The notes beneath the pieces are model-generated. The model was not told the DNA's origin and ran no database searches. It saw only the letters and a program-made list of their open reading frames with translations. Positions 13,597-29,691 of a stretch of 64,000 nucleotides of DNA are shown piece by piece (position 1 is the stretch's first letter; every line of letters starts with the position of its first letter). A program made the translations under genes and the position numbers. Source of the stretch: Vulcanimicrobiota bacterium (lineage in GTDB: Bacteria; Vulcanimicrobiota; Vulcanimicrobiia; Vulcanimicrobiales; Vulcanimicrobiaceae); contig CAWGBN010000002.1 of assembly GCA_963820825.1 (NCBI GenBank), forward strand, positions 347,949 to 411,948. The letters are read 5' to 3'.

Positions 13597-14148
13597 CTAA
13601 CGGCGAGCCGAGGCCTTCGCTTTCTTTTGAGATTTGAGAAAGTAAACGAGGACGCGCTTCTCTTCTCTAAATCCCACCAAACTCTTCGACTGCGTCGGAT
13701 CGCGCAACGCCTCGACGGCATAGAGCGCGGCTTCATCCTCGGCAGCCGGATCGGCATCGAGCTGATCGTCGGGGTGCGGATTGCGAACCAGCGCCTCGCC
13801 GCAGCGATCGCTGAAGAGTCCCACCTGCAGCTCGAGCTCTTCCTTTGAGAAGGTCTCGAGATCGCGGGTCACGTGCACGAAGGTCAGCGTTCGATCCCCC
13901 TCGCACTCCACGCGCAACACGGCCGGCTCTTCCTTGCCGAACGCGAGAAAGCTGCGGACGTGCTCCTCAACGCCTTCGGCGAGTGCGGCCTGCGCCGACT
14001 TATCGAGACGCTGGCGCACGGCGAACGTCAATCGAAGCGTCCGGTCCGTCGGACCGGAGCGAATCGAGGCCAGTTCCGGAAAACGCACCAAGAGTGCGCA
14101 GACCAGACTGACGGTATCGGCGTTTTCGACCGGTGCTCGCGTGCTCAT
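13597..14148 (-). CDS. Hypothetical protein (183 aa)
   Basis: ATG at 14148 (MSTRAPVENADTVSLVCALLVRFPEL...), GC-biased codons, directly upstream of ymdB. Confidence 0.7.
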   Translation of the reverse strand: MSTRAPVENADTVSLVCALLVRFPELASIRSGPTDRTLRLTFAVRQRLDKSAQAALAEGVEEHVRSFLAFGKEEPAVLRVECEGDRTLTFVHVTRDLETFSKEELELQVGLFSDRCGEALVRNPHPDDQLDADPAAEDEAALYAVEALRDPTQSKSLVGFREEKRVLVYFLKSQKKAKASARR

Positions 14149-14262
14149 GATTCTCGGATCTTCTTTCCGCTTCCAATCCCCCGAGGGCGACGTGCGCCAA
14201 GGGGGAGGGTCGTACGACGCGGTGCCAAGGTCTCCCCTTGCCCCCGCCTGAAAAAGACCGGG

Positions 14263-14817
14263 GTGACCCCGCGGAAGGTTCCGGCCACCCTGATCCTCGG
14301 CTTGCTTGCCTCGTTGGCGGCCCACGCGGCGCTCTTCGGTCGCGGCCATGCCATGGGAGGCGGCTTCCACGCGGTGCTCGTTCAGCTGGCCCTCACCGGG
14401 GCGCTCTGCCTGTTGGCTTTCTTCGGCGCGCTCGCTTGGAACGGCTCGCAGGGTGCAGCGGACGGGAGCATCGTGGCGGCCCGGCTGCGGGCGCGCCTTC
14501 CGGGCCTTGGCACGCTCTTCGCCGGCACGCTGGCCTGGTATGCGGCGGCGGAGGCGCTCGAACCGCATCACGCTTCCGTCTCGCTGGTCGTCACGGGGGT
14601 TGCGGTCGCGGGCATTGCTTGGCTCGTCTTGCAGCTCGCCCGCGCGATCGTCACCATCGTCGCCGGCGCGGTTATCGCCGTATGCCGCGCCGCCTTCTCG
14701 CCGCGAGCGACCTCCCGGCACCGCCGTCCGCGCCAACACCTTATCGCGCGCCGCGCGCCGATCGCGCGCCGTCGCTTCGCCCGTCCTCCTCCGGTCTTTG
14801 CGTTGATCCGCGCCTAG
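14263..14817 (+). CDS. His-containing membrane protein with near-terminal RPPP; putative regulatory leader of the downstream TonB-dependent receptor
   Basis: GTG at 14263. AHAALFGRGHAMGGGFH and LEPHH motifs, about 4 hydrophobic helices, ends ARRRFARPPPVFALIRA 39 nt before the receptor ATG. Confidence 0.7.
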   Translation: MTPRKVPATLILGLLASLAAHAALFGRGHAMGGGFHAVLVQLALTGALCLLAFFGALAWNGSQGAADGSIVAARLRARLPGLGTLFAGTLAWYAAAEALEPHHASVSLVVTGVAVAGIAWLVLQLARAIVTIVAGAVIAVCRAAFSPRATSRHRRPRQHLIARRAPIARRRFARPPPVFALIRA

Positions 14818-14856
14818 CCGCGCACCCAACGCACTCTTTCATTAACCGGAGGGACC

Positions 14857-17286
14857 ATGACTCGCATTTCTGCGGCGCTCGTCGCCGTTCTCATCATGTT
14901 TTCGTACGCCCGACCGGCCGTCGCAGCCGTGAGCGGGCTCGTTCGGGGAACCGTAACCATCGACGGTACGCCGGCCGCCGGAGCGGCCGTAACATTGGAG
15001 GGCGAGGGCTCGAAATTCGCAACCAAAGCGGACTCGAAGGGAGAGTACGTCTTCTCCAACGTGCCGTTCGGCAGATATCGCCTCACCGCAAACATCCCGA
15101 ACGTTCCGCCGCTGCAGGTGGACGTCACCGTCACGAGCGGCGTGGTGGCGACCGTCGATCTGCCGCTCTCCAAGTTACGGCAAATCGCGCAAACCACCGT
15201 GACCGCGCACGCCGGCATAACGAGCTATCCACCCTCGGTCCATCTAATCGACCGCACCCAAATTCAAACGTCGCCCGCTCAAAATAGCCTCGATCGAACG
15301 CTCGAAACGCTGCCGGGCGTCATACCCTTCTCCTACAACGAGCCGGTGATTAACGGATTCCACGGCGTGACCTACAACATCGATGGCGCTCCGCTGCCGC
15401 TGGCAACCACCTCGAACTTCGCCGAAATCATCGATCCCAAGATCATCGACTCACTCGAACTCTACACCGGCGCGATTCCGGCCGAGTACGGTGGCGACCG
15501 GATGGGCGGCGTGGTGAACATCATCAGCAGCCGCCCGACAGACTTCGCCCCAGGCGTATACGGCATCGTCGAAGGGGGAATCGGCAATCAATCGCAGGGC
15601 GTGGGGCAAGTCGAAGCCGCCGCGCGCTTCGGTCAGAGCGAGGCTTTTCTGGATGCCAATACCCAGAGCACCGCGCGTGGCCTGGACGCGCCGACGTTCG
15701 ATGCCATCCACGATAACTCGTCGCAGAGCGACCAGTTCTTCCGCTTCATAACACAACTGACGCCGCGCAGCTCGCTGGCGTTCGACTACTCCAACCAACT
15801 CGCGCAGTTTCAAATACCGATCAACACCGACCCGAACAACCCGTACGACCCGATCTATACCCCGGCCGGAACCGACGACGTCCAGCGCGAGTACGATCGG
15901 TTTTCAAACCTCAACTACACGCTGACCTCCAAAGACGGCAACGGCGTGCTGCAGGTCATCCCCTGGTGGCGCTCAACGCGGATCAACTACGACGGTGACC
16001 TTTTTAACGACGTGCTCGGAGTTACCCCAAACTTCAGCGCCGACGCAATCTGCTTTATGTGCGGCTCGCCGCAAGACGGCTCGGGCTCGGGCTCCGGCAG
16101 CGGCCAGCTGCATAACGTCGGCCTGCTCTCGAACACCGACGCAAGCTATATCGGCTTGCGCGCCTCCGACTTCCGCGCGACGAAGAACCACGCGTGGAAG
16201 ATCGGCTTTGACGTTGACCGCGAATTCCTGGTCGCAAGCCAGGCCTTCGCCTGTTACTATCAACAAGGCTGCGGCGCGACGTACGGCACGCACGATCAGC
16301 CGTATTACCTTACCGCGCCCCCGCAGCAGGGGCAGGCGGGATCGCAGGTCGGCATTTACGGCCAAGATAGCTGGCAACTTTCAAAATACGTCCTCTTCAA
16401 CTACGGCCTTCGCTACGACCACTCGACCGGATACACGAGCGGCAATATGTTTGAACCGCGTCTCGGTCTCAATCTCTGGGACGGCGGCAAAAATACCTAT
16501 CACGTCTTCTACGGCCGGTTCTACGCGGCGCCACTGCTCGAGGACGTGCGACAGGATTGCGTGCTCTTGCAAGGATGCACGGGCGAGCCGGTCTACAACC
16601 TGCTGCCCGAGCAAGACGCCTACGCCGAAATGGGCTGGCAGTACGCGTTCAACCCCGCCTTTACCGGATCGATCAATCTCTTCCGCAAAACGTCGGTTAA
16701 CGTCCTCGACACCACGGAGCTGCTCAATACCCCGCTCTTTGCGGTTTTCAACAACGCGATCGGCATCGACAACGGTGCGGAACTCCGGCTGCAGCAGCGC
16801 CTTCCCAACAACGATCTCTGGTGGTTCACGATGACGTATTCCGGATCGTACGCCGCCTGCGTCTCCGGATCGACGTTTCTCTTTCCACCGAATACCAATG
16901 AACCCGGCGTTTCGTGCGTCGCTCAGCTAGCGCCCGAAGATCACGACGAGACCGTCGTCTCGAGCGCGGCATACACGTGGCGCTTCGGCAAAGGCGGAAA
17001 CTGGTTCACGACCCTGCAGGGTAACTACGGCAGCGGCTTCCCGGTCGCGTTCGAGAGTGCGAATGCGAACCTGAGTGGGCGCCTTCCGGCGCATACGACC
17101 TTCGATCTCGCGGCCGGGCACAACCTCGTCCTCGGCCGTCCCGGCGAAGACCGGGGCCTGGGCGTTCAGCTGATCCTCAACAACATACTGAACCACCAGT
17201 ACGTCATCAAGGTCGCCAACGGGTTCAACACCACGCAGATCTCTAACGGCACGAACTTCCTACTGCGGCTCTCGGCCCCGTTCTAG
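14857..17286 (+). CDS. TonB-dependent receptor
   Basis: Signal peptide, carboxypeptidase-regulatory-like N-domain, plug (YNIDG, PAEYG..MGGVVNI), YGLRYD, NILNHQY, terminal Phe. Confidence 0.9.
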   Translation: MTRISAALVAVLIMFSYARPAVAAVSGLVRGTVTIDGTPAAGAAVTLEGEGSKFATKADSKGEYVFSNVPFGRYRLTANIPNVPPLQVDVTVTSGVVATVDLPLSKLRQIAQTTVTAHAGITSYPPSVHLIDRTQIQTSPAQNSLDRTLETLPGVIPFSYNEPVINGFHGVTYNIDGAPLPLATTSNFAEIIDPKIIDSLELYTGAIPAEYGGDRMGGVVNIISSRPTDFAPGVYGIVEGGIGNQSQGVGQVEAAARFGQSEAFLDANTQSTARGLDAPTFDAIHDNSSQSDQFFRFITQLTPRSSLAFDYSNQLAQFQIPINTDPNNPYDPIYTPAGTDDVQREYDRFSNLNYTLTSKDGNGVLQVIPWWRSTRINYDGDLFNDVLGVTPNFSADAICFMCGSPQDGSGSGSGSGQLHNVGLLSNTDASYIGLRASDFRATKNHAWKIGFDVDREFLVASQAFACYYQQGCGATYGTHDQPYYLTAPPQQGQAGSQVGIYGQDSWQLSKYVLFNYGLRYDHSTGYTSGNMFEPRLGLNLWDGGKNTYHVFYGRFYAAPLLEDVRQDCVLLQGCTGEPVYNLLPEQDAYAEMGWQYAFNPAFTGSINLFRKTSVNVLDTTELLNTPLFAVFNNAIGIDNGAELRLQQRLPNNDLWWFTMTYSGSYAACVSGSTFLFPPNTNEPGVSCVAQLAPEDHDETVVSSAAYTWRFGKGGNWFTTLQGNYGSGFPVAFESANANLSGRLPAHTTFDLAAGHNLVLGRPGEDRGLGVQLILNNILNHQYVIKVANGFNTTQISNGTNFLLRLSAPF

Positions 17287-17306
17287 CGAGCCACGCCGCA
17301 CCTAAA

Positions 17307-19733
17307 CTAGGGCCGGAATCGCACGCCCATGCTGAGCTCGCGACCCGGCCCAAAGTGATTGCCTTGGGCGTTGATCAGCGTAACGTAGTATCGATCGTTG
17401 AGCAGGTTTTGGACGTCGAGCGTCAAGGCGGCCTTGGGCCACAGCGCGATCCCTTCTTCGACGTCAAAGGTTGTGTGCGGCGTCTGTTTGCAGTATCCAG
17501 GCGTACCGGGCGGACAGAAATCCGAAGAGAGGCCGCTCCCGTATTCGGCGTCGGCCGAGAACCAGCCGCCGCGCCGGTCGTTGAGCAAGATCCCGCCGGT
17601 AACTGTATACCGCTGCTCGTGGTCAGCCGGCGTAAATCCCGTATCCTGTCCGAAGCATGGAGCGAGCAGCTGCGTTTCGCATCCCGCATTGAGCGAGACG
17701 ACGTGAGCGAATGAAACGTACGCGCGGCCGTTGCGGGTTAGCGGCTGGGTATAAGTGACGGCTTCTTGCGACAACCGCCCAAGGACGTAGTTGATGTCTT
17801 GATGCAGCAGCGTCGCGCCGACTTGCGTGTCGTCGATGAGGTCGTTCGCGTTCTTCTGCCAAATGCGAAAGCCGAGATCGCCGGAGCCGATCGGGACGTG
17901 CCCGCCGAACTCGAGCTGCGTGTCGCGTTCCGGCTTGAGATCGAACTGCGCGAGCGTACGCTGTAACGGCAGGTTGAGCAGATGCGCCGTGTACGGGCTC
18001 ACGTTTTCGAATGAAAACGGCTCGAAGAACCGGCCGGCGTACGCGTAGAGGCTTGCCCTTCGGCCAAAAAGACGCGTTAGCTTGATCCGAGGGCTGAAGG
18101 CCCCGAAGCCTTGTCCGAAGTTAGGCGACTTGATGGTGAAGAAATCGTAGCGGATCCCATAATCGGCTTGCCAGCGATCACCCATGCGCCAGCTGTCTTG
18201 AAGGTACGTTTGGTAGGTGTTCCCGATATTTGGGGAATCGTCGACGACCGTCGCCGGCGCGAGGGGCGTGTTCGGGCTGAGAATAGGGGCGAGATAGTTA
18301 TTGGGCTGTAACGAGATCGCGTAATACTTCAAGATGCGGCTGAGATCGTATGACACTCCGGCTGCCACGTTATGCTGCCCGAAGACTTGAGTATAGTCCG
18401 CCTGCATGATGTAGTTGAGCTCGGTGCGCGTGTCGGCCAGCGAAACGCCGCACATCGTCGGGAACGCGCTCGGATTTGCGGGAGCCAGCGTGAACGCGTT
18501 GGCGCAATCCGTGGAGCTGCCGCTGTTGCCGAATGGCGCCGGCGTACGATTCAGCGATTCGCCGTAGGTCCAATCGTTGACCGGATCGCCGTAATCTTGA
18601 ATCCTCCCCGCGCTATACGCCGGGCCGTAGGTTAGCGCACCCATGCTTCCGATGGCGTGGTGAAACTGTACGCCGAGAAACGTGTCTGCCTGCGTTTCGT
18701 TGTCGTCGGTATCGCCCGGTTCCCCGTAGGCAGTGTCGTTGGGAATCTGAAAGGTGCTGTGGCTATTGATAAACGTGATGTTGGTAAAGTTGTTTGCGCC
18801 CGCCGGTAGGGTAAAGCGAGCGAACTGACCCAGGGAGCTCGTATCGTTGTGAGGCGAGTTCCAATCGGGAGGGTCGAGTCCGCGCGTGCTCGTCAATCCG
18901 CTGAACGCTACGTCGAAGCCGCCTCCGCCTTCCAGCGGTGCGTGATAGCCGAACGTGTACTGCGCGTTCGAGTACGATCCAAAGCTGGCGTAACCGTCGA
19001 CTCCTGGCGGCCCGGTCCCCGCCCTCGTCGACAAATTGAAGATTGCCCCGAATCGTAATCCATACTGCGCGGGGTACGCACCCTCGATGAGATCGACGAA
19101 GGAGAGGTCGTTGATGTTGATCTCACTGCCGATGTCTCGGTTCAGCTCCTGCGGCAGCTGCACGCCGTCGACCGTGTAGTTGATGACACCGTGGTCGCCG
19201 TTGATATGGACGACGCCGTTCGCGCCTTGAACGGCTCCGGGCATCTGCAGCTGCATTTGCGTGAAGTTGTTGTCGAAGGGAAGCCGCGTTAGGTCGGTAC
19301 CGTTCAACACGACGTCGCTGCCGCTCCCATGGATCGCGAGCGATTGCGTTCGGCTAACGACCGCGTGGGCGATCTCCGTGAGTTTCGCAAGCGGGATGAC
19401 GATCTCGGCGCCGCCGCCGGCAAGGTCGACCCGGACGAGTCCGAGCAGGTCTCCCGTTTTCGCCTCGACGTCGTACGTGCCCGGCGCGAGCGGCGGAAAC
19501 GAGAAGCGTCCGGCGGCATCGGTCGTCGCCCTTACGGTTAGATTGTTTCCCGAGGCCGTGACCGAGACGTTGGGTGCGGGCCTTCCCTCGTTCGTCACCC
19601 TGCCCCGTATGAATGCGCTCGCATTTACCGCATATGCCGGTGATGCGCAGAGGAAAATTAGGAGAGCCGCGATCGATGCGGCGAGCGGCGCTCCGCTCGT
19701 CGCGCGCACGCAGGCGCGAAGCCATGACACCAT
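17307..19733 (-). CDS. TonB-dependent receptor
   Basis: AGGAG RBS, N-terminal domain, plug (YTVDG, YPAQYGLRFGAIFNL), YGIRYD, LKPERD, NLLNDRY. Confidence 0.9.
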   Translation of the reverse strand: MVSWLRACVRATSGAPLAASIAALLIFLCASPAYAVNASAFIRGRVTNEGRPAPNVSVTASGNNLTVRATTDAAGRFSFPPLAPGTYDVEAKTGDLLGLVRVDLAGGGAEIVIPLAKLTEIAHAVVSRTQSLAIHGSGSDVVLNGTDLTRLPFDNNFTQMQLQMPGAVQGANGVVHINGDHGVINYTVDGVQLPQELNRDIGSEININDLSFVDLIEGAYPAQYGLRFGAIFNLSTRAGTGPPGVDGYASFGSYSNAQYTFGYHAPLEGGGGFDVAFSGLTSTRGLDPPDWNSPHNDTSSLGQFARFTLPAGANNFTNITFINSHSTFQIPNDTAYGEPGDTDDNETQADTFLGVQFHHAIGSMGALTYGPAYSAGRIQDYGDPVNDWTYGESLNRTPAPFGNSGSSTDCANAFTLAPANPSAFPTMCGVSLADTRTELNYIMQADYTQVFGQHNVAAGVSYDLSRILKYYAISLQPNNYLAPILSPNTPLAPATVVDDSPNIGNTYQTYLQDSWRMGDRWQADYGIRYDFFTIKSPNFGQGFGAFSPRIKLTRLFGRRASLYAYAGRFFEPFSFENVSPYTAHLLNLPLQRTLAQFDLKPERDTQLEFGGHVPIGSGDLGFRIWQKNANDLIDDTQVGATLLHQDINYVLGRLSQEAVTYTQPLTRNGRAYVSFAHVVSLNAGCETQLLAPCFGQDTGFTPADHEQRYTVTGGILLNDRRGGWFSADAEYGSGLSSDFCPPGTPGYCKQTPHTTFDVEEGIALWPKAALTLDVQNLLNDRYYVTLINAQGNHFGPGRELSMGVRFRP

Positions 19734-19790
19734 AAGATGCTCCTAGCACAAGAGAGAGTTGAGTACGGCCGGCGAGGCCGCGCTAAGTGG

Positions 19791-19955
19791 CTAGGAGCGA
19801 GGCGGAGGACGGTTCCCCCGCGTTGATGCGAAGGTTGCATAGGTCGGAGTGACGTCGGCGACGGCGAACCGTGGGATGGAATGCGCCGCGTGGTCGCACA
19901 CCGACCCCGAGAAAACCAATGCCGGGCAGACCGGGCAGCCTCTCCAATGCTGCAT
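19791..19955 (-). CDS. 54-aa CxxC/RPPP leader peptide (CruR/DUF2946-like), not in the ORF track
   Basis: Hand translation: MQHWRGCPVCPALVFSGSVCDHAAHSIPRFAVADVTPTYATFASTRGNRPPPRS*. Stop lies 57 nt before the receptor ATG. Confidence 0.75.
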   Translation of the reverse strand: MQHWRGCPVCPALVFSGSVCDHAAHSIPRFAVADVTPTYATFASTRGNRPPPRS

Positions 19956-19957
19956 AC

Positions 19958-19974
19958 TTGCAACTTATTCGCAA
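19958..19974. promoter_or_regulatory. Imperfect AT-rich palindrome, possible Fur-family operator
   Basis: TTGCAACTTATTCGCAA (minus strand TTGCGAATAAGTTGCAA), between a -10-like TATATT and the leader ATG. Confidence 0.5.
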
Positions 19975-20029
19975 ATATAGCCGGGAGGACCTTTGGCTAC
20001 CGGGAGTAGATTAAGATTTTTTGGAGCAG

Positions 20030-21061
20030 ATGCACGACCTTAGCCGCGGAAGAGTGATCGTCACGGGGGGCGCCGGCCTTATTGGCAGCGCCGTTCTTTG
20101 GGCCTTGAACCGGCGCGGGATCGACGACGTTCTCGTAATCGACCGCCTGGACGCTTCCGAAAAGTGGAAGCATCTGGTCCCGCTTCGCTTCATCGACTAT
20201 ATGGATGCCGATGAGTTCGAGCGCGCCGCCGAATCCGGGCGCACCTGCGGCGACGTACGGACCGTCATTCATCTCGGCGCCTGCTCATCGACGACCGAGA
20301 CCGACGTCGACTATCTCTTGAAGAACAACTACGAGTATACGAAGCGTATCGCGCGCTGGGCGATGGACGAGGAGGCGCGCTTCGTCTACGCGTCGTCGGC
20401 GGCGACGTACGGCGGGCTAGAAGCCGAGCTCTCCGACGAAGCCAACCTGCATTCGCTGCGGCCGCTCAATGCCTACGCCTATTCGAAGCACCTCTTCGAT
20501 CTCTACGCGGCGCGAACCGGACTCGACCAGCAGATCTGCGGACTCAAATACTTCAACGTCTTCGGTCCGAACGAGGACCATAAAGGCGAAATGCGCAGCG
20601 TCGTTCAGAAGGCCTTCGAGCAGATTCGCGAGAGCGGCTCGGTCCGGCTCTTCAAGAGCCACCGTCCGGAGTATCGTGACGGCGAACAGCAGCGCGATTT
20701 CATCTACGTCAAGGATGCGGTCGAGATGACCCTGCATCTCGCGGAGTCAGGCGCGACCGGGCTCTACAACATCGGCACGGGGACGGCGCACACCTGGCTG
20801 CAGCTCGTCCGGCCGATCTTCCACGCCCTCGAGCTTCCGGAACGAATCGAATTCGTGGAGATGCCGGTTCACCTCCGCAACAAGTACCAATATCACACCT
20901 GCGCGCGGATGGAGCGGTTCTATGCCGGCGGCTACAATCGTCCGATGACGCCGCTCGCCGACGCCGTGACCGATTACGTAACCAACTATTTGGTGCCGCA
21001 ACGGCCGCTCGAGCTCTCCGACGCTCCGGTGGCGGCCCCACTCCGACTAATGTCACCCTGA
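20030..21061 (+). CDS. hldD: ADP-L-glycero-D-manno-heptose 6-epimerase
   Basis: IVTGGAGLIGS, HLGACSSTTE, YASSAATYG, PLNAYAYSK, KYFNVFGPNEDHKGEMRS, RDFIYVKD. Confidence 0.92.
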   Translation: MHDLSRGRVIVTGGAGLIGSAVLWALNRRGIDDVLVIDRLDASEKWKHLVPLRFIDYMDADEFERAAESGRTCGDVRTVIHLGACSSTTETDVDYLLKNNYEYTKRIARWAMDEEARFVYASSAATYGGLEAELSDEANLHSLRPLNAYAYSKHLFDLYAARTGLDQQICGLKYFNVFGPNEDHKGEMRSVVQKAFEQIRESGSVRLFKSHRPEYRDGEQQRDFIYVKDAVEMTLHLAESGATGLYNIGTGTAHTWLQLVRPIFHALELPERIEFVEMPVHLRNKYQYHTCARMERFYAGGYNRPMTPLADAVTDYVTNYLVPQRPLELSDAPVAAPLRLMSP

Positions 21062-21079
21062 GCCTCTAGAAAGGATTCG

Positions 21080-21811
21080 ATGTCACAGTCCAACCGTCCC
21101 GAACGCCGCCGTCAACAACGCGGTGGCGCCGCTCCACCGCCGCGCCGCGACCCGATGCGACCGATCTACCTCGGCATCGGCGCCGCGGTTCTCGCGCTCA
21201 TCATCGCGTTCGTGCTCTTCAACTGGTGGCAGGGCCGCGTCGCGCAGCAGGCCCTGGCAACGCCGACGCCGGGTACGAATGCCAGCGCGAAACCGATCCA
21301 AATCAGCAACGGCGAGAATCTCGGGACGAAGTTCGACAAGGCGAAGTATCCCGATACGATGCATGGAGGCCGCGGTCAAGTCGTCGACGGCATCGGATGC
21401 GGAACGCAAGAGTACGCAACCCTGCACGTACACACCCATCTCGCGCTCTTCTATAACGGTAAGCAGATGCAGGTTCCGTCGTATATCGGTTTCGCGCCGA
21501 GTCTTGCAGGCGGATGCCTCTACTGGATCCACACGCACGACGGGAGCGGAATCATTCATGTCGAGGCCCCGGACATCAATCCACCGCAGGGCGGCCCCTA
21601 CACGCTCGGCATGTTCTTCGACATTTGGGGAGTCCCGCTGACGACGAACAACGTTGCCGGGCTCAAGGGCCCCGTGACCGTCTACGTCAACGGCACGCCG
21701 TATCAAGGCGATCTGCACGCGATTCCGCTCGGCGCGCATCAACAGATCGTTATCGAGGTCGGTGCGCCGCTGGTTCCGGCGCCGAACTACGCCTTCCCGC
21801 CGGGCGTCTAA
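21080..21811 (+). CDS. Membrane-anchored hypothetical protein with HxH motifs
   Basis: One TM helix; HVHTH, CLYWIHTHDGSGIIHVE, TLGMFFDIWG. Confidence 0.75.
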   Translation: MSQSNRPERRRQQRGGAAPPPRRDPMRPIYLGIGAAVLALIIAFVLFNWWQGRVAQQALATPTPGTNASAKPIQISNGENLGTKFDKAKYPDTMHGGRGQVVDGIGCGTQEYATLHVHTHLALFYNGKQMQVPSYIGFAPSLAGGCLYWIHTHDGSGIIHVEAPDINPPQGGPYTLGMFFDIWGVPLTTNNVAGLKGPVTVYVNGTPYQGDLHAIPLGAHQQIVIEVGAPLVPAPNYAFPPGV

Positions 21812-21817
21812 CGTACG

Positions 21818-22390
21818 TTAGCGCAGAACCTTATCGAGTGCGGCGGCGAGTTCCTGATACGAGAGCTCGCCGCTGTTCAGATAGGCGACCTTCTTGTCGC
21901 GCCCGACGATCGCAATCGTCGGGAAACCTCCCTGGAGATAGAGGTTGGCGACGTTGAGCAGCGGATCGTACGCAACCGGATACTCTGCGTGAAATCGCCG
22001 CTGCCAATCGAGCACGTCGAGTTGCGACGACGCCGAGGTTCCGTCCATTGCCGTCTGGCTCCCGGATACCGCGACGAACCTCACGCGGTTACGGTACGCC
22101 TGGTAGAGGCGATCGATGACGGTGGTCTCGCGCTGGCAGTGCGGACACCACGTCGCGAAGACCTCGAGAAATACGGGCTCGTTCGTCTTGCTCAAATCGA
22201 AGAGTCCGCCGGTCGTCGAGACGACGAAGTTCGGCGCCGGTTGGCCCACCTGTGCCTTGCCCACGATTGGCGATTGCGACGCGTTCTCGACGCTTCGGTG
22301 CCCGGGGCCGAAGAGATAGTAGAGCACCGCGGCGACGAGAATCAGCACGAGTGCGGCGAGGGTCGTGACGGCGAGTTGACGACGGGTCAT
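21818..22390 (-). CDS. TlpA-like thiol-disulfide oxidoreductase
   Basis: N-terminal TM, FATWCPHCQRE, GGFPT. ATG at 22390 overlaps the upstream stop. Confidence 0.85.
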   Translation of the reverse strand: MTRRQLAVTTLAALVLILVAAVLYYLFGPGHRSVENASQSPIVGKAQVGQPAPNFVVSTTGGLFDLSKTNEPVFLEVFATWCPHCQRETTVIDRLYQAYRNRVRFVAVSGSQTAMDGTSASSQLDVLDWQRRFHAEYPVAYDPLLNVANLYLQGGFPTIAIVGRDKKVAYLNSGELSYQELAAALDKVLR

Positions 22391-22824
22391 GCGTTGCGAA
22401 GCTTTCGATCGACGGCAAGCGCGCCCGGCGCCGCCCACGCGACAAAGATGGACGCACATGCGAGTGCAAGGTCGAACCCGACGTGCGGCCAATCCGCGAC
22501 CGCCGCGTCATTCGGTCCGAAACATCCGCAGTTTGCGGCAATGTGGCGGAGCACCGCCGACGCTACGGCGCCGGCATAACCGAGGAACTGCAGCGCGGCG
22601 ATCGCCGCGGCGACGCGCGTGAAGAGCCCGGCGATCAGGTACGCGCCAAGCGCGGTTTCCAGGAAGGGGAGCGCCAAGGCGAGCGGCCCGACGATCTGCG
22701 GCGGAAGCAGCCGAAAGCCGGCGATGTTGGCCGCAAGCTCGGCCGGATGGCCAACCTTAAGCGCGCCTGCAACGACAAGCAGACCGCCCAAAAGAACGCG
22801 GATGATTAAGACCGCAGCCTCCAT
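22387..22824 (-). CDS. MauE/DoxX family membrane protein
   Basis: RVLLGGLLVVAGALK, LPFLE, NCGCFG. Confidence 0.85.
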   Translation of the reverse strand: MEAAVLIIRVLLGGLLVVAGALKVGHPAELAANIAGFRLLPPQIVGPLALALPFLETALGAYLIAGLFTRVAAAIAALQFLGYAGAVASAVLRHIAANCGCFGPNDAAVADWPHVGFDLALACASIFVAWAAPGALAVDRKLRNA

Positions 22825-22900
22825 TGCGGAGCAGTCCTTTGCGCCCCGGCTCCCTCAACCCCTGGTAGAATAATCGCATGCGCCGAATCTTGGCGTCCCC

Positions 22901-23857
22901 ATGATCGCGCTGCTCGCGTCCGCGCTCTTAGCGCTCGTCCCCGTCCACGGGCTTCTCATCGAGAACCTCGCGGATCGTACGGCGATCGTCCGCACCGATG
23001 CGGTGGTCGGGATGTTTGCGGCGCGCACGCGCCGCTACCGATTCGTACCGCCGGTAACGCTGCGTGCCGGTACGACGCTCGACGCGATGCTCGATCCGGC
23101 GGCGAATCCCCCGGAGCTGCGCGATGCCGTCGCGGCCGGTGCCTTCGCGCCGGGATTGCCCGACGCCGGGCGCGTCGTTCCCGTTGCGCTTGGCTCGAAG
23201 CTTCCCAGGGCGATGCTGGTCGATCAGCAGCAACGCCCGGTCGAGCTCGACCGCGCCTTCAGCGGCAAGACGCTCTTGCTCTCGTTCGTCTTCACCCGCT
23301 GTCCCGATCGCACGCTCTGCCCCGCAATCAGCGGAAAGTTCGCCTATCTGCAGCAGCGTTTGGATCCCAGGCGCTTCGCGCTCGCCGAGATCACGCTCGA
23401 TCCGCAGTACGACTCACCCGCCGTCTTGCGCGCGTACGGTGCCGCCTACGGCGCGCGTCCCGAGTGCTGGCGCCTGCTCACGAGCACGGGCTCGACGATC
23501 GTCCGCCTGCTCGATGCATTCGGGGTCAGTTCGATGCGCGTGAGCGAGAGCAACTTTCTTCACAGCGACCGGCTCTTTATCGTCGCACCCACCGGACGGA
23601 TCGCCGACATCGTCGAGACCGGCGAGTGGGATCCGGGCGGCGTGCTCGCGCAGGCGCGAGCGGTCTCCGGTCTTGCGAACAACCCCTTCGAGCGCTTCAA
23701 GCTTGCGCTCATCGCCAATGCGATCGCGCTCTGCGGCGGGAGTCAGTTCGCCGGGATCGCGCTGCTCGAGCTCTCGCTCTTCACACTGATCGTGCTGGCA
23801 TCGGCGGCCGCGTTATGGACCGTCGCCCGCATCATCTGGCCGCGCGGGGCAGGATGA
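22901..23857 (+). CDS. SCO family copper chaperone with N- and C-terminal extensions
   Basis: FVFTRCPDRTLCP, ITLDPQYDSPAVLRAY, FLHS, C-terminal TM. Confidence 0.85.
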   Translation: MIALLASALLALVPVHGLLIENLADRTAIVRTDAVVGMFAARTRRYRFVPPVTLRAGTTLDAMLDPAANPPELRDAVAAGAFAPGLPDAGRVVPVALGSKLPRAMLVDQQQRPVELDRAFSGKTLLLSFVFTRCPDRTLCPAISGKFAYLQQRLDPRRFALAEITLDPQYDSPAVLRAYGAAYGARPECWRLLTSTGSTIVRLLDAFGVSSMRVSESNFLHSDRLFIVAPTGRIADIVETGEWDPGGVLAQARAVSGLANNPFERFKLALIANAIALCGGSQFAGIALLELSLFTLIVLASAAALWTVARIIWPRGAG

Positions 23858-23893
23858 CCTGGACCCCGGAGCAAGGAAGCCTGGGCGCAGCGC

Positions 23894-24392
23894 ATGGACC
23901 AGCAAGCTTTCCTAGAGCATGCAATCGAGCAGTATGGCAAAGCGACCTATAATTTTGCCTATCGCTTGACCGGCAATGCCGCCGACGCGAGCGATCTGAC
24001 GCAGGAAGCGTTCATTCGCGTCTATCGGGCCTGGCAAAGCTTCAAACCCGGAACGTCCTTCCTCTCCTGGATCTATCGAATCGTTACGAATCTCCACCGG
24101 GACGAACTTCGGCGCCGTAAGGGACGTTATCAAGAAGAAATCCCGGAGATCGCCGTTGCGCCCATCGAGGAGTACGTCGAAGGTCATCTCAGCGAACCCG
24201 TTTCCAAGGCCCTTGCCGAGCTCACGCCCGAACAGCGCCGAGATCGTCTTGCTCGCCGATATCGAGGAGTACAGTTATCAGGAGATTGCTCGGATCGTCG
24301 GATGCTCGGTGGGGACCGTCCGGTCGCGGCTCCATCGCGCCCGCGGGCAGCTCCGAAAACTCGTCAACCGCTATATGAAGTCATCGCCATGA
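23894..24392 (+). CDS. ECF RNA polymerase sigma factor (frameshift near 24240)
   Basis: DASDLTQEAFIR and SWIYRIVTN, then in another frame SYQEIARIVGCSVGTVRSRLHRAR. Confidence 0.9.
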
Positions 24393-24864
24393 ACGAAACG
24401 CATCCAAGCACCGATCGCATCGTCGATTACCTGCACGGCGAGCTTTCCGCAGCCGAAGATGCGGCGCTACACGCGCATCTCGCGAGCTGCCGCTCGTGCG
24501 AAGACGTGCGCGCCGACGAAGTCGCGATCACCGAGGCGCTCCGCGCGCACGCCCGCGCCGCGGAGCTCGAGTTTCCACCGGGGCTGGCCACGGGAATTCG
24601 CGTCACAGCCGAACGGCCGAGACCGCATTCGCTCTGGGAGGCGCTGCGCGCCGGCCTGCGTCCGCGCCCCGCACTGATCCTTCCCGCGGTCGCCGTGATC
24701 GCGATCGTCCTCTATTTCGGCTTCGCCGGCCGGCAAGGCGCGCCGGTGCCGATCGCGATCGATCCCTCATTTTACGTGCGAATCACGCGGTGATGGCTGC
24801 GAAAGCACCCTTCGCCCAAAACGACGCGCCGGTCGTATTGACGTCGAGCGATGAAACGCCTTAG
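24389..24864 (+). CDS. Zinc-binding (ZAS-type) anti-sigma factor (frameshift near 24780)
   Basis: DYLHGELS, HLASCRSC (HxxxCxxC), one TM helix. ATG overlaps the sigma stop. Confidence 0.82.
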
Positions 24865-25877
24865 CGCCGCCGCGCTCGCGCTCGCTGCGACGAGCTTCGC
24901 CTTCGCGGCCGCGAGGCCGGCGACCGATCCCATGGATGCGCTGCTGCGTGCGGCGATGAACGCTTCGCCCAACGTTTCGTACACCGGAATCGTCGAGGTC
25001 TTGCGCTTCGGAAGCCACGACGCAGAGGCAATCGGTCTATCGGGTCGAACATCGCGCCCCGGATTTCACGCGGCGCTACTACAACGCGCCCGGCGAACTC
25101 AACGGAGACTCGGTCCTTTCCAAGGGCCAGCTCGTCTTCGCGATCGATCCCAAGCGCAAGCGCATCGTGGAGCGCGAGGGCGAAGGGAGTGCGGATACGG
25201 CGACGCTCGGCGCCGACTACGCGCTGCTGCGCCGGAACTACCGGGTGCTCAACACCGGTAACGAGACGTTCGACGGGCGCCGCACGATCGACGTGACCCT
25301 AATCAACGATTATACCGGCAAGCGGACGATGCTGATGCGAATCGATGCGATCAGCAGAGTCGTGCTCGACCGGCAACTCTTCGCGGCAGACGGCGCGCTC
25401 GTGAGCGAAGTCCGCTTCGAAACGATTCGCTACGTTACGGAGCTTCCGCCGGGCGATTTCGAGCTTCCGTCGGGATACGAGCTGGTACGCGGCGCCACGT
25501 TTGGGGAACCCTCCGGGCAGCCCGATCGCGTCGTAAAGAGCGCCGGCTTTGCCGCGCGCGAACCGCGCGCGCTCCCCGAGGGATTCGCTCCGGTCGACGC
25601 TACGGTGGTCGAGTTTCGCGGAGTCCGCTCGCTGCATCTGCTCTACTCCGACGGCCTGCGCACCGTGTCGCTCTTCGAAAACGCGCAGGCCTCGACGCTC
25701 GATGTCGCGCAGCTCCGGCCGGAGACGCTGACGGTCGGCGGAACGAGCGCGCTCTACGCCGAGGATGGCGCGACGGCGCTGCTGGCGTGGAGCGATCGCA
25801 CGCTGCACTACACGCTCGTGGGCGACGTCGGACTCGTCGATCTGCGTCGTCTCGCCCAATCAATGGAGAAGCCCTGA
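24851..25877 (+). CDS. MucB/RseB-like periplasmic regulator (frameshifted)
   Basis: Signal peptide, VSYTG, LLRRNY, LPEGF, HLLYSDGLRTVSLFE. Third gene of the sigma operon. Confidence 0.8.
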
Positions 25878-25896
25878 TCGAATCGATCAGGGCTTC
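25868..25896. terminator. Hairpin between convergent genes
   Basis: GAAGCCCTGATCG-AAT-CGATCAGGGCTTC, a perfect 13-bp stem. Confidence 0.7.
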
Positions 25897-25914
25897 GTCC
25901 AATCGGAGTCTTCG

Positions 25915-28900
25915 CTAGAGCCGGACGTTCGCCGTTAGGTAGAACTGAAACGGCAGTTTGTGAGGAACCGTTGAGCGCTGAAATGATCGCCGGCCCCAAC
26001 TGCGGCTCGTACGGGTACTTCCGGAACGGTTGGATCTGCGAACCGGGATAGCCGGGCGGATTCACGATGGCGCCCGGCGTTCCGTAAGGAGCGACCGGAA
26101 AGACCGTTCCGCTCGACGTTACCGTACGAGCAGATATTGCCGTCGTTGAACGTCCACGGCAATTGCGTTCCGCCCCAGCAGTAGTTGACGATGTTGGTGA
26201 GCTGACCGACGAGTTGGATTCGCGGGCTCACGTCGTATGACAACTGCAGGTTGGCGATCAGCTCGTTGGGCTGCGTGAAGTCACCAATCGGGTCGAAGCC
26301 CCCGGTGAACGGATCGGGAATGTTTACTACGTTCGCACAATCCGTCGCGTTATAGCGATCGCCGAAGAGCGGTTTGCCGCAGCCGCTCGCCGGGTCGATG
26401 CCGGCTTCGGTGATCGGAATGCCGTACTTGCCGCCGCCTTGGAACTGCAACGAAGGCGTGATTGCGAACTTCTGATGACGGTAGTTCAGCATCAGCGTGC
26501 CGACGTACGGCGACCCAAAGCCCTGCGCGGCTAAGCCGAGCGAGCCCGGGAAGGTGTCGTAGGTCGGGAAGTTCTGCGCTGTATCGATCAGTGCTTGCGG
26601 CGGAGCGTTCCAATAGGGATTTGCGATGTCGTTGCGCGGACACCCGCCGCCCGGAAGTGCGCCGACCGGATTACCCGATGCGGTGTAGCACGCGTTGGCC
26701 GCCAAACCGTTCGTGGTGCTGCCGCCGCACATGCTGTTCGGAGCTCCCGGATGATTCGCACAGTATTTCGTGTAGGCATTATACTGCGCGATCGAGGCGT
26801 TGATCGGCGCGAGCACTGTCGAGCCCGAGGCACCGGCCGCGATCGGACCGTAGTGAATGTACGAGTTGGTGTAGGCAAACGACATCAAGCCCGACAAGCC
26901 GTCGCGCGAGAAGTCGCCCTTTTGCAGCTGGAACTCGACGCCTTCGCTGCGCTGGCTGCCGACGTTCAAGCCCGATACGAATCCGGTTTGCGCATTGAGG
27001 AAGAACTGCTGGATTTGATTCTGAGTCTGCCGCAAGAATGGCGTAAGCTTGAACGTGAAGTCCGTGTTTTTGAAGCGGTGCTCCCAAGAGAGATCGTAAT
27101 TGATCGAGGTCGGCGGTTGAATCGGATACCCGGGCGTGTTACGCCCGAACGCGAGGAAGTGCGAGCCGATATAGTCGGCGAGATCTTCCTGACGCGTATT
27201 GTACTGCTCGTAGGCGGTATTCGGCGCTTCCGTGTAACGCCCGTAGGAGAAGCGGAAGACGTCGTTCGGATTCGAGGTATAGGTGCCTGCGATACGCGGT
27301 TGATAAATGTTGTAGGTATAGGTCTGTGACGGCACGTTCTGCACGTTCGCGGCGTGCTGTCCTGCCGGGCAGGGCGCGCCGGGATTCGGGTTTGCTTGCG
27401 GGGCCCCGGTCTGATTGATGATGCAATTGTCGAGATTGTAGGCGTTGAACCAGAACTGGCGCACCGCGGCCGAGCCGCCGAGCGGTGGAACGAGCGTGTT
27501 TTGGCCGACGAAATTGAAGCTGTCTAGCCGAACGCCGACGTTGAGCAGCCACTTGTCGGTCGGACGGTATTGGTCGGTGATAGAGGCGCCCGCAAAGTTC
27601 GGTATCGTTCCGCTATAGGTTCCGTTGAGACCGTTCTCCGAGATCATGTATTTGCAGGCGCTGCCCGCTTGCGGCTTGCCCGGAATCGAACAAGATGAAC
27701 CTAGCCCTCCGACCGAGTAGTTGGGAGACAATGGGATCGTGTTCCGGTGACAGTTCACCACCGACGTTCCACTGGAGGTCGGGTTGAAGCAGTAGCCGCT
27801 GTACGGGTCGGTCGCGTTCACGATGTTGGCGAAGCTGCCCTCGCCGCCGAGGTTATAGAAGCCGTTGTTGTCTCGGACGATGCGCGCCGTCGTGTACGAT
27901 CCGGCGACGCTGAGCAGATTTTGCTGGTTGATCTGATCCTGGAACTCGGGCTGAGGCCCCGCGTGTGCGTGTTGAGCTCGTAGTCGGGTGCGAGCGGACA
28001 GAAAAAGTAGCAGAATCCGGTGTTGTACGGCCCGTTGAGGAACCAGTCGCTATAGAACGTGAAGCCGTAGAGGCGAAGGAACGCAGCTGACCCGAAGTTC
28101 TTCGTATACTGAATCTTCGTGATCGCGGTGTCGTTATAGGAATTGTCCCGCGCATCGGGCGGCACGACGTTCGGATTGGCCGGCGAGCCCACGTCGGTGC
28201 CGTTGGGGAAGCTGTAGGGCTTCACGCAGCCCGCAAGAGCGTTGAGTCCCGCTTTATTGAACGTGCCTGCCGACGTCCGAGCTGCAACCCCACGTATAGG
28301 TGTTCGTCCACGTTACCGGGATCGAAGTTCCATATGGAATTCCGCCGCCGGTCAGCGTGGAGAGCGTTTCGCCGTTTATAGCGTACATACACGCCGCACC
28401 TGAAACGGCGTTTGGCCCGGTGCAGAACGGCGATGCGATATCGTTGGCCGCGTAGAACTGATTCTTGAGCGCTTCGTCGTCCCAGAGCATCTGCACGTCG
28501 TCGCGTCCGGCATCGTTGCGGTGCGGGATTCCGATGTGGAGGTTCACGACGGTGTCTCGCCCGTAGATCGTGTTGGTACCCAGTGACGACTGACCGTTGG
28601 GATAGTTGCCCGCCGGGCCGAGCGGATAGTACGTGTTCCCGGAGTTGCCGTAATAAGAGCGACCAGCCGGGAGCGAAGGGCTGGCTGTACGGATTCTTAC
28701 CGTAGCCGTAGCCCAAAGGGCTGCCGACGATGCCGAGTACCGGCCCGAGCCAGTTGTCGTACTCGGAGCCGTTGTTGTTGTTGACGTAGTTGAACGCCTG
28801 ATTGCAACCGGCGACGCCGACGTAGTACGAGAAGAGCCGGTCGGGCGTCGCGCCGCCGATTTCGATGGCGGCGCGATGGTAGAAGGCGGGCGTCCAATGC

Positions 28901-29691
28901 CGAGCGAGCCGCTGCCGTAGCCGGGGTAGGTTCCGGTCTTGATGACTTGATTGATGAAGCCCGAGAGGCCTTGGCCCTCGGAGTTGGCCGGGATTCGCGC
29001 CGGTGTAGACCTGGACTTCGGCGTTGCCGAGCGACGATGCCGAGCTCGACGCGTAGTTGTCGAACGACCGGTTGACGGGGACGCCGTCGAACTCGTAGCC
29101 GACTTGGTCGTAATCGCCGCCGCGAATGTTGACCGTCGCGTAGTACCCGTTTGGTTGGGGATGACGTACGCACCCGGAACCGTCGAGATCGCCGAGTAGG
29201 CCTGAGTTGATGAGGCCGCCGCCGCCCAAGCGCCGCCGTTGCGGCCTGCGTGGTGGCGTTGATCGAGTAGACGTCGGCCGTCGTACCGGACTTGACCAGC
29301 GACGCCGGCCGCCGTCGGCGGTGACGTGCGCGATGGTTCGCAGCGCCTTGAGCATCCGAACCGAAACCGTTTGCACCGTGTCGGCAAAGACGATCTGACC
29401 CGGAACGCTGACGACTTGGTAACCGCTCTTGGCTGCGGTTACCGTATACGTATCCGGAGCAAGCGTCGAGAAACGTAAAATGCCCGCGCCGCGTCGGTCG
29501 TGGTCGGTCGCGGATTGCGACGGACTTGTGGCGGTGACTTGCGCTCCCGCGATGGGAGCCGAGGTTTCGGCATCGAGAACGGTACCGGTGAGACCGCCCG
29601 TCGTGCCTGCCAGTGCCCATGTTCCCTGGCAAACGAATGCGACGAGCAGCACCAGCGCGGTAACGAGATGCCGGAGTGATCTCCGGATCAT
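25915..29691 (-). CDS. Large TonB-dependent receptor (multiple frameshifts in this sequence)
   Basis: Signal peptide, carboxypeptidase-regulatory-like domain, plug (IRGGDYDQVGYEFDGVPVN), VGVRLD, YGRY. Reconstructed end PFQFYLTANVRL* at 25915. Confidence 0.85.

Follow-up and report, generated by a model that had tools for sequence, protein, structure and literature searches.

In a 64,000-nucleotide stretch of the genome of a Vulcanimicrobiota bacterium (contig CAWGBN010000002.1, positions 347,949 to 411,948; hereafter the window), an open reading frame (ORF) of 54 amino acids (aa) lies on the minus strand, in a divergent spacer of about 300 bp upstream of a TonB-dependent receptor gene. The initial annotation had proposed that ribosomes arrested at an Arg-Pro-Pro-Pro (RPPP) motif near the end of this ORF open the receptor gene's Shine-Dalgarno (SD) sequence, and that metal binding releases the stall. 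By comparison with related genomes, we find that the ORF is a shortened relative of a family of larger proteins ending in NRPPP, and probably a translated regulatory leader. The leader and its target comprise the following features, in window coordinates.

19791..19955, minus strand: 54-aa leader ORF with its UAG stop, a short form of the NRPPP leader family by its sequence and translation
19926..19937, minus strand: CxxC codons (C7-P-V-C10), aligning with EGC(P)xC of the long forms
19800..19814, minus strand: codons of the presumed stall site, N48-R49-P50-P51-P52
19790..19798, minus strand: anti-SD arm GCTCCTAGC (GCUCCUAGC), made of codons R53 and S54, the UAG stop and one further nucleotide
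19765..19781, minus strand: inner G+C-rich hairpin within the loop of the anti-SD stem, in the minimum free energy (MFE) fold
19739..19747, minus strand: SD arm GCTAGGAGC (GCUAGGAGC), which holds the AGGAG of the receptor gene (19744-19740)
17307..19733, minus strand: TonB-dependent receptor gene, 808 aa, with a signal peptide and CarboxypepD_reg, Plug and barrel matches

The initial annotation gave both the ORF and the stem correctly. The translation of 19955-19791 is MQHWRGCPVCPALVFSGSVCDHAAHSIPRFAVADVTPTYATFASTRGNRPPPRS, followed by the stop, and no hydrophobic stretch was seen on inspection of this peptide. The two arms are perfect 9-bp reverse complements; the anti-SD arm lies 2-10 nucleotides (nt) 3' of the last Pro codon, and the AGGAG lies 6 nt from the receptor ATG (19733). 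The stem was present in the MFE and centroid folds of 19830-19720 (-45.2 kcal/mol, z -3.31, 1 of 200 shuffles as good) and also in the fold of the whole 321-nt intergenic region. No U tract follows the inner hairpin and no terminator-like site was found; a relative of the same genus (genome G194) has a hairpin of other sequence at the same place. Searching 19400-20300 against Rfam (E<=10) returned two sub-threshold chance matches and no family, and Pfam and NCBIfam gave nothing relevant for the 54-aa peptide or the long forms described below. A leaderless-mRNA reading of the ORF was set aside, the hexamer 7-12 nt 5' of the ATG being poor in two of the three short forms inspected by eye.

Relatives of the leader and conservation of the stem

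The receptor was used to search 41 related genomes, and the regions upstream of its orthologues showed two arrangements. At 13 loci of the same genus (L002-L013, L016) the leader is absent and a divergent Fur-family gene is found with a TTGACT...GATAATGATA promoter/box. The best match to this Fur-family paralogue in the window's genome has 30% identity, so that genome holds no close copy. At seven loci of other genera, a same-strand upstream gene encodes a protein of ~200 aa that contains GCPFC(G/A)HD and ends in NRPPPxL.. before the stop. Control of the receptor appears to have been swapped between a repressor-only and a leader-based form.

None of the seven long forms tested matched Pfam. 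An AlphaFold2 model of one long form (predicted local distance difference test score, pLDDT, 83) has four long helices and a disordered tail of ~40 residues; Foldseek returned no match in the PDB at E<=0.001, and no fold was assigned. With a profile of the seven members, a long form was detected in 73 of the 301 genomes of the class (27/32 in one family of genomes, 46/263 in that of the window and 0/5 in a third). Among 1.84 billion representative proteins, 160 clusters matched at E<=0.001, and all named members are listed as 'hypothetical protein' from metagenome genomes of Candidatus Eremiobacterota, Baltobacteraceae and Tumulicola.

All 39 matches within the fetched loci end in NRPPP. The 264 database relatives divide into 189 with NRPPP, 45 with another xRPPP (26 of them SRPPP), three with xRAPP (NRAPP or DRAPP), two with other R-x-P-P endings and 25 with no such motif, possibly fragments. 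A receptor homologue follows directly downstream on the same strand in 36/36 loci. Across 33 loci NRPPP is invariant, yet its 15 nt are written in 29 distinct ways; since the peptide is constant while the codons vary, selection acts on the peptide. Long forms also share invariant His, Glu and Asp residues, both within the helices and between them. In 29/29 of these proteins, 68-71 residues separate the invariant Asp of EGCxxCxxD from the Asn of NRPPP, in a tail that shows little conservation otherwise. Of the 170 database relatives fitting the EG....D pattern, 123 have a CxxC. Among the loci in these counts, one or two come from genomes marked as unpublished (L053/G076, L045/G063); their omission lowers n by 1-2 and leaves the conclusions unchanged. 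One database match (P0233) is an 81-aa protein in which the N terminus of a long-form leader is joined directly to the last ~30 residues of a TonB-dependent receptor, an apparent deletion across the whole leader-receptor module.

BLASTP aligned residues 27-52 of the window ORF with the 193-aa long form L059 (17/26 identical, 65%, E 2e-10), hhalign matched it to a 29-sequence family profile at E 1.7e-5, and its G-C-P-V-C aligns with EGCPxC. The operator and promoter, the start codon, the Cys pair, the last ~26 residues, the stop and the anti-SD are kept, and the deletion takes out helices 1-3 together with most of helix 4. The ORF thus lacks the features of full members in our alignment A4 (four transmembrane (TM) helices, the helix-1 His/Glu and EG(C)xx(C)xxD). 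It does have the family's C-terminal tail (T-Y-S/A-T-F-A-x-T-x-G-N-R-P-P-P, 2-9 residues before the stop) and the family's context, upstream of a CarboxypepD_reg-type receptor with an anti-SD after PPP and a 7-1-7 operator at the start. Judged from these alignments, it arose by internal deletion from a family of four-helix membrane proteins of ~200 aa, and is a truncated derivative rather than a full member or an independent tiny leader.

Three further short forms were found, in G194 and in two other genera (G058 and G365), all with CxxC, NRPPP and an anti-SD stem. In G194 the receptor is 84% identical to that of the window, and a 52-aa leader with the same 9-bp stem lies beside the same epimerase gene in a 331-nt region that is 68% identical at the DNA level. 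Both Cys residues of the CxxC are kept there (CLRC) and the two middle residues differ. Over the last 30 codons, 12 are identical, 11 differ synonymously and seven non-synonymously, and the differences at codon positions 1/2/3 number 7/4/14, which is a coding pattern.

To follow the stem across the family, we folded 33 non-redundant loci, each over the stretch that begins at the Asn codon and runs 15 nt beyond the receptor start; one of them (L024) has no SD-like motif at the chosen start. In 27/32 loci the SD core was fully paired, with partner bases lying between -3 and +30 nt relative to the last Pro codon. Its partner lies mostly at 0 to +10 after the last Pro, with the stop anywhere from +7 to +34. 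The arms themselves vary (GCUCCGU/ACGGAGC, CCCUCUCGA/UCGAGAGG, UCUCCAAUC/GAUUGGAGA and, in G058, GUCCCUUC/GAAGGGAC), and native pairs of 5' arm and SD averaged -20.2 kcal/mol versus -14.9 kcal/mol for arms swapped among loci (0/10,000 permutations).

Covariation was assessed on 28 loci, after five of the 33 had been set aside because their loops were the longest. The nine stem pairs were 80.4% paired versus 70.1 ± 1.7% after shuffling (0/500 shuffles; as the genomes are related, such shuffle counts are not probabilities) and 36-54% with partners slid by 1-3 columns, controls over which a structure derived from the window's stem is somewhat favoured. Cells with both sides changed numbered 32 versus 11.2 ± 3.6 in shuffles, and compensatory changes occurred in six of the nine pairs. 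RNAalifold gave no consensus on the 28 intergenic regions because MAFFT had set the 3' arms slightly out of register. Much of the initial annotation is borne out by these comparisons: the ORF as a conserved coding leader, through its homology to the long forms and its substitutions against G194; RPPP as the key motif; and the pairing of the anti-SD with the receptor SD, which recurs family-wide after the prolines.

A second module, the operator and the gene neighbourhood

The window holds another leader-receptor module, which converges on the first.

14263..14817, plus strand: second, full-length leader, 184 aa, ending in RRRFARPPPVFALIRA (FARPPPVFALIRA) before the stop, upstream of a paralogous receptor
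14787..14795, plus strand: anti-SD of the second module, formed by the Pro codons CCU CCU CCG G (CCUCCUCCGG); MFE z -2.90, 2/200 shuffles
14845..14853, plus strand: SD arm of the paralogous receptor, ACCGGAGGG
14857-17286, plus strand: paralogous receptor gene (ATG 14857), with CarboxypepD_reg, Plug and barrel matches

The second leader ends 39 nt before its receptor gene with the C-terminal motif FARPPP. From its sequence, without a predictor, the 184-aa protein reads as a polytopic membrane protein. Its Pro codons pair with CCGGAGGG of the SD. Homologues, searched for with this single protein, were found in 22/24 genomes of the same genus and form a family separate from the NRPPP family. Motif and pairing were examined at 17 of 20 loci: F(A/V)RPPP is kept in 17/17, and the SD core pairs with nt 3-10 from the Arg codon, fully in 16 and with a single unpaired base in one. 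In G030 (contig 11, locus L113, 4564-11450) a leader, a receptor, a leader, a receptor and a third RPPP-ending protein follow one another on one strand; two of these three RPPP-ending membrane proteins belong to the second family.

Two elements lie between the 54-aa leader and the divergent gene.

19959..19973, no strand assigned: 7-1-7 palindrome TGCGAATAAGTTGCA, which ends 3 nt 5' of the leader ATG and is a putative operator of the Fur family (Zur-like)
19974..19979, minus strand: TATATT, immediately upstream of the operator and, from its sequence, a possible -10 element

The same palindrome stands 3-4 nt before the ATG in six long forms of the window's family of genomes and in all four short forms, and G058 has TATAAT where the window has TATATT. 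The best operator match genome-wide (14/15, one mismatch) lies on contig 6 of G000 at 701337-701351 (L100), 13 nt before a Fur-family gene (701365-701757). The leader promoters and the promoter of this gene share the form TG(C/A)GAATnATTC(G/T)CA. 3' of the Fur-family gene are genes for a ZnuA-family binding protein (PF01297), an ATPase and a permease, the last two named from their translations alone, without a domain scan; the tail of the ATPase is rich in His. Among solved structures, the regulator's nearest relatives are 3mwm/7vo0 and Mycobacterium tuberculosis FurB/Zur (actinobacterial), ahead of Fur. The title of the 3mwm entry reads only 'metal uptake regulation protein'; we take it to be Streptomyces Zur. 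The ZnuA-family binding protein is nearest to MntC. The canonical Fur 7-1-7 box TGATAATnATTATCA has no site in the genome with two or fewer mismatches. The palindrome is likely to be the operator of a regulon.

Beyond the divergent spacer and further along the window, the neighbouring genes are as follows.

20021-21061, plus strand: ADP-glyceromanno-heptose 6-epimerase (TIGR02197, 370.9 bits, above cut-off), across the divergent spacer from the leader
21818-22492, minus strand: Redoxin/AhpC-TSA (thioredoxin-like) gene
22387-22824, minus strand: MauE/DoxX gene
22901-23857, plus strand: SCO1/SenC gene
23894-24793, plus strand: extracytoplasmic function (ECF) sigma factor, with a zf-HC2 anti-sigma domain fused or adjacent to it

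The epimerase gene is also the neighbour in G194 and G285, and points to a heptose-containing lipopolysaccharide in this uncultured lineage. Some or all of the SCO1/SenC, Redoxin/AhpC-TSA and MauE/DoxX genes lie near the module in G194, G285, G037 and G032 too, and their recurrence beside leader-receptor modules extends to other genera; in G032 SCO1 overlaps the receptor stop. A third receptor-like gene of the window looks split (25935-29691, minus strand) into a CarboxypepD_reg ORF (28222-29691), a 135-aa ORF (27818-28225) and a barrel ORF (25935-27821), and may be a frameshifted or mis-delimited receptor.

Proposed mechanism and alternatives

We consider it probable that the 54-aa ORF is a translated regulatory leader, in which a stall at RPPP uncovers the SD of the receptor gene, and that a Fur-family (Zur-like) repressor acts on its promoter. 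The basis for this is computed, namely sequence features, homology, coding selection and the position and covariation of the anti-SD; from it we infer that the ribosome stalls, that the SD is unmasked and that a repressor acts. In the free mRNA, the receptor SD would be locked in a stem with the bases 3' of the Pro-Pro-Pro codons. A ribosome translating the leader would slow or arrest at R49-P50-P51-P52, and its footprint would cover and unwind the anti-SD at 19798-19790. Going by the coordinates, a ribosome whose P and A sites are occupied by Pro51 and Pro52, respectively, should cover ~15 nt downstream, a span that takes in the whole anti-SD. A second ribosome could then load at the AGGAG and make the receptor. 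Once the leading ribosome finished at the UAG and left, the stem would re-form. Transcription of the unit would probably be set by a Fur-family (Zur-like) repressor on the palindrome ending 3 nt 5' of the ATG.

In the long forms, the length of the stall would probably be tuned as the four-helix domain is inserted co-translationally or loaded with metal, and a membrane metal site that is read co-translationally is a reasonable inference for them. Copper is our best guess for the metal, judged by the gene context (SCO1/SenC and the thioredoxin-like gene). The short form of the window, with CxxC only and at a different distance from RPPP, may sense cytoplasmic metal, or may be a constitutive 'opener' with control at the promoter.

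Several observations count against this mechanism or parts of it. Taken alone, the ORF is unremarkable: 103 ORFs of at least 40 aa overlap the G+C-rich 12 kb from 14000 to 26000, an ORF of this size is not beyond chance in such DNA, and its significance therefore rests on comparison with relatives. It has no SD of its own, and the A2 profile did not pick it up at E<=0.01. A consensus scan of 19650-20150 found no promoter (no full sigma-70 site) and no terminator. The genome encodes elongation factor P (EF-P), which normally relieves pauses at PPP, so that a lasting stall probably needs the conserved residues before NRPPP. Masking the footprint of the stalled ribosome in silico raised the unpaired probability of the window's SD from 0.00 to 0.21-0.40, and across loci the mean rose from 0.03 to ~0.3 and exceeded 0.5 in only 5/32; the effect is in the right direction but partial. 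In the short form of G365 (L080, on the minus strand of the locus) a frame shift separates the CxxC part from the NRPPP part: it reads MQAWRALLLPFFPLVVPDGRCPLC onwards from the ATG, and a frame change is needed to reach the ending YATFAVTRGNRPPPLPLLA before the stop. Both frames stop in or beside the anti-SD, and the change is either a broken leader or a sequencing or assembly indel in a genome that is 65% complete.

The remaining points concern metal. The signals conflict, the gene context suggesting copper and the operator a Zur-like regulator beside a ZnuA/MntC-like transporter. The CxxC motif is present in 4/4 short forms and 25/29 long forms and missing in the other four long forms, and its distance to the Arg of RPPP, fixed in the long forms, is 38 (window, C10 to R49), 28, 21 and ~46 residues in the short forms. 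With this spacing not kept, the claim that metal binding releases the stall is weaker for the short version. Overall, the feature appears real and the mechanism first proposed for it is largely upheld by comparison, while the ability of the short form to sense metal is doubtful.

There is only a slim chance that the 54-aa ORF is a decaying remnant of a deleted long form, without function, with the stem a leftover and the receptor independent of leader translation. About three quarters of the parental protein is indeed gone, and with it all the invariant His and Glu residues of the membrane domain; the short form of G365 carries a frameshift, P0233 is a leader-receptor deletion fusion, and the 13 same-genus orthologous receptor loci do without a leader. 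Decay fits poorly, however, with two species only 68% identical in the region that have both kept the ORF, its start, the CxxC, the last ~26 residues, the stop and the 9-bp stem, and with the coding pattern of their substitutions. The short forms of other genera keep the frame, NRPPP and an anti-SD of other sequence, as in G058. The stem, if formed, would moreover block translation of the receptor unless something opened it.

A transcriptional route like that of CruR, in which Rho is blocked by a ribosome stalled at RPPP and terminates before the receptor gene once that ribosome is released, also strikes us as unlikely to be the mechanism here. It is the published mechanism of the only characterised leader of a TonB-dependent transporter, as described in PMC9426467, and the spacer between leader and receptor gene is C-rich and pyrimidine-rich. 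Yet this spacer measures 57 nt, where CruR has 162 nt, it is an SD pairing at a fixed distance from PPP that is conserved and covaries, and the paralogous family uses the Pro codons themselves as anti-SD. The Rho route and SD unmasking could coexist. Control by the RNA alone, with a stem-loop repressor opened in trans by a small RNA, a protein or temperature and the ORF incidental, is very improbable: the stem is stable and buries the SD, and the leader lacks its own SD, but NRPPP stays constant as a peptide under varying codons, the anti-SD follows the Pro codons and not the stop, the substitutions obey codon structure, and Rfam has no match.

Returning to the translated leader, a wider reading of the two modules is tentative and may well prove wrong. 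Eremiobacterota would have two paralogous, undescribed families of polytopic inner-membrane proteins, with arrest at an invariant C-terminal (N/A)RPPP that an anti-SD, on or just 3' of the Pro codons, wires to the cognate receptor; a membrane metal site read co-translationally would set production of the transporter, and the ~50-aa CxxC...NRPPP forms would suffice as cytoplasmic metal-responsive leaders. For the translated leader itself, the comparative signal is unusually clean: the peptide is invariant, its codons vary freely, the anti-SD keeps its place at the stall site, and the stem covaries. The natural deletion series (200 aa, about 80 aa, 52-54 aa) would mark the minimal functional unit, and in the second paralogous family the anti-SD is formed by the Pro codons. 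As RPPP stalls Escherichia coli ribosomes, the prediction can be tested without culturing the organism. The annotation also gains, with short ORFs missed by gene callers recovered and ~200-aa 'hypothetical proteins' given a proposed function.

Comparison with known systems

RPPP is reported to stall ribosomes most strongly of the XPPP motifs when E. coli has no EF-P (PMC4176338). The initial annotation had pointed to CruR, and CruR and CutF are indeed the closest systems. It had also suggested a minimal, mechanistically different variant; minimal applies to the window ORF, and mechanistically new does not, since SD unmasking is already published for CutF.

CutF (Rhodobacter capsulatus, DUF2946-like, cutFOG) is the closest mechanistically. 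It shares an upstream ORF, a Cys pair and a C-terminal PPP, and its PPP stall is described as melting a stem-loop that shields the SD of the next gene (passages of PMC9973294; bioRxiv 10.1101/2025.02.05.636593). The window ORF likewise has a poly-Pro/RxPP motif within ~10 residues of its C terminus, followed by an SD-occluding stem-loop. CutF itself is secreted with a Sec signal peptide, has CxxxC, controls a multicopper oxidase and is copper-induced. By contrast, the window family matches no Pfam or DUF2946 profile, derives from a four-helix parent, ends in NRPPP and targets an uptake receptor, and the window copy has no export signal.

CruR (Bordetella pertussis, DUF2946, cruR-bfrG/crtA) is the first gene before a TonB-dependent transporter, which it regulates through RAPP and CXXC according to PMC9426467. 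The likeness lies in the CXXC, the C-terminal R-x-P-P and this position. Its arrest was later demonstrated in vitro, as a passage of PMC12992588 reports. CruR homologues are described as syntenic with Sco and AhpC_TSA genes (PMC9426467), and SCO1/SenC and Redoxin/AhpC-TSA genes lie near the window module. CruR differs in its Rho-dependent termination, 162-nt spacer, RAPP motif, N-terminal export signal and CXXC-RAPP distance of 45 ± 2 residues (as given in PMC9426467), against RPPP and a 57-nt spacer with an SD stem here, where the distance is 38 residues in the window ORF and 68-71 from the invariant Asp in the long forms.

The kinship with DUF2946 (PF11162) raised by the initial annotation did not hold up. 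The profile matched neither the window peptide at E<=1 nor seven long forms at E<=10, and searching the 85%-complete genome in all six frames gave no match at E<=1. The ~45-residue spacing and the signal peptide or single Nin-Cout TM segment of DUF2946-type leaders are both missing. By analogy, then, the leader would work like CutF in a context like that of CruR, yet it stands outside DUF2946.

Among RAPP/RGPP arrest proteins (ApdA/ApdP and four-TM proteins encoded upstream of metal genes in Streptomyces lividans), the arrest motif likewise lies 3-10 residues from the C terminus; the set is membrane or exported and encoded before metal-homeostasis genes, and some have four TM segments and predicted metal sites (PMC12992588, in the passages seen). 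As those four-TM proteins were described in 2025, this kind of leader is already known from that source. The same survey, in those passages, notes upstream ORFs before TonB-dependent receptors, almost all of them signal-peptide proteins. Such surveys sought RAPP/RGPP, whereas the window motif is R-P-P-P and RAPP occurs in only 3/264 of our relatives; the passages of PMC12992588 make no mention of RPPP families, Eremiobacterota or an anti-SD fixed to the prolines. A literature search found no paper on arrest peptides of Eremiobacterota, which is no proof of absence.

SecM, MifM and VemP also arrest near the C terminus and thereby expose a downstream SD, with release by force, according to PMC9973294 and PMC10987492. 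They monitor and regulate the Sec/YidC machinery, whereas the leader described here would act on an outer-membrane transporter, presumably in response to metal. The leaders studied so far that stall in response to metal status, CruR and CutF, both belong to DUF2946; an unrelated family in an uncultured phylum would here have the same wiring. As far as our searches show, the family, the RPPP motif, the phylum, the fixed geometry of the anti-SD and the reduced forms are new.

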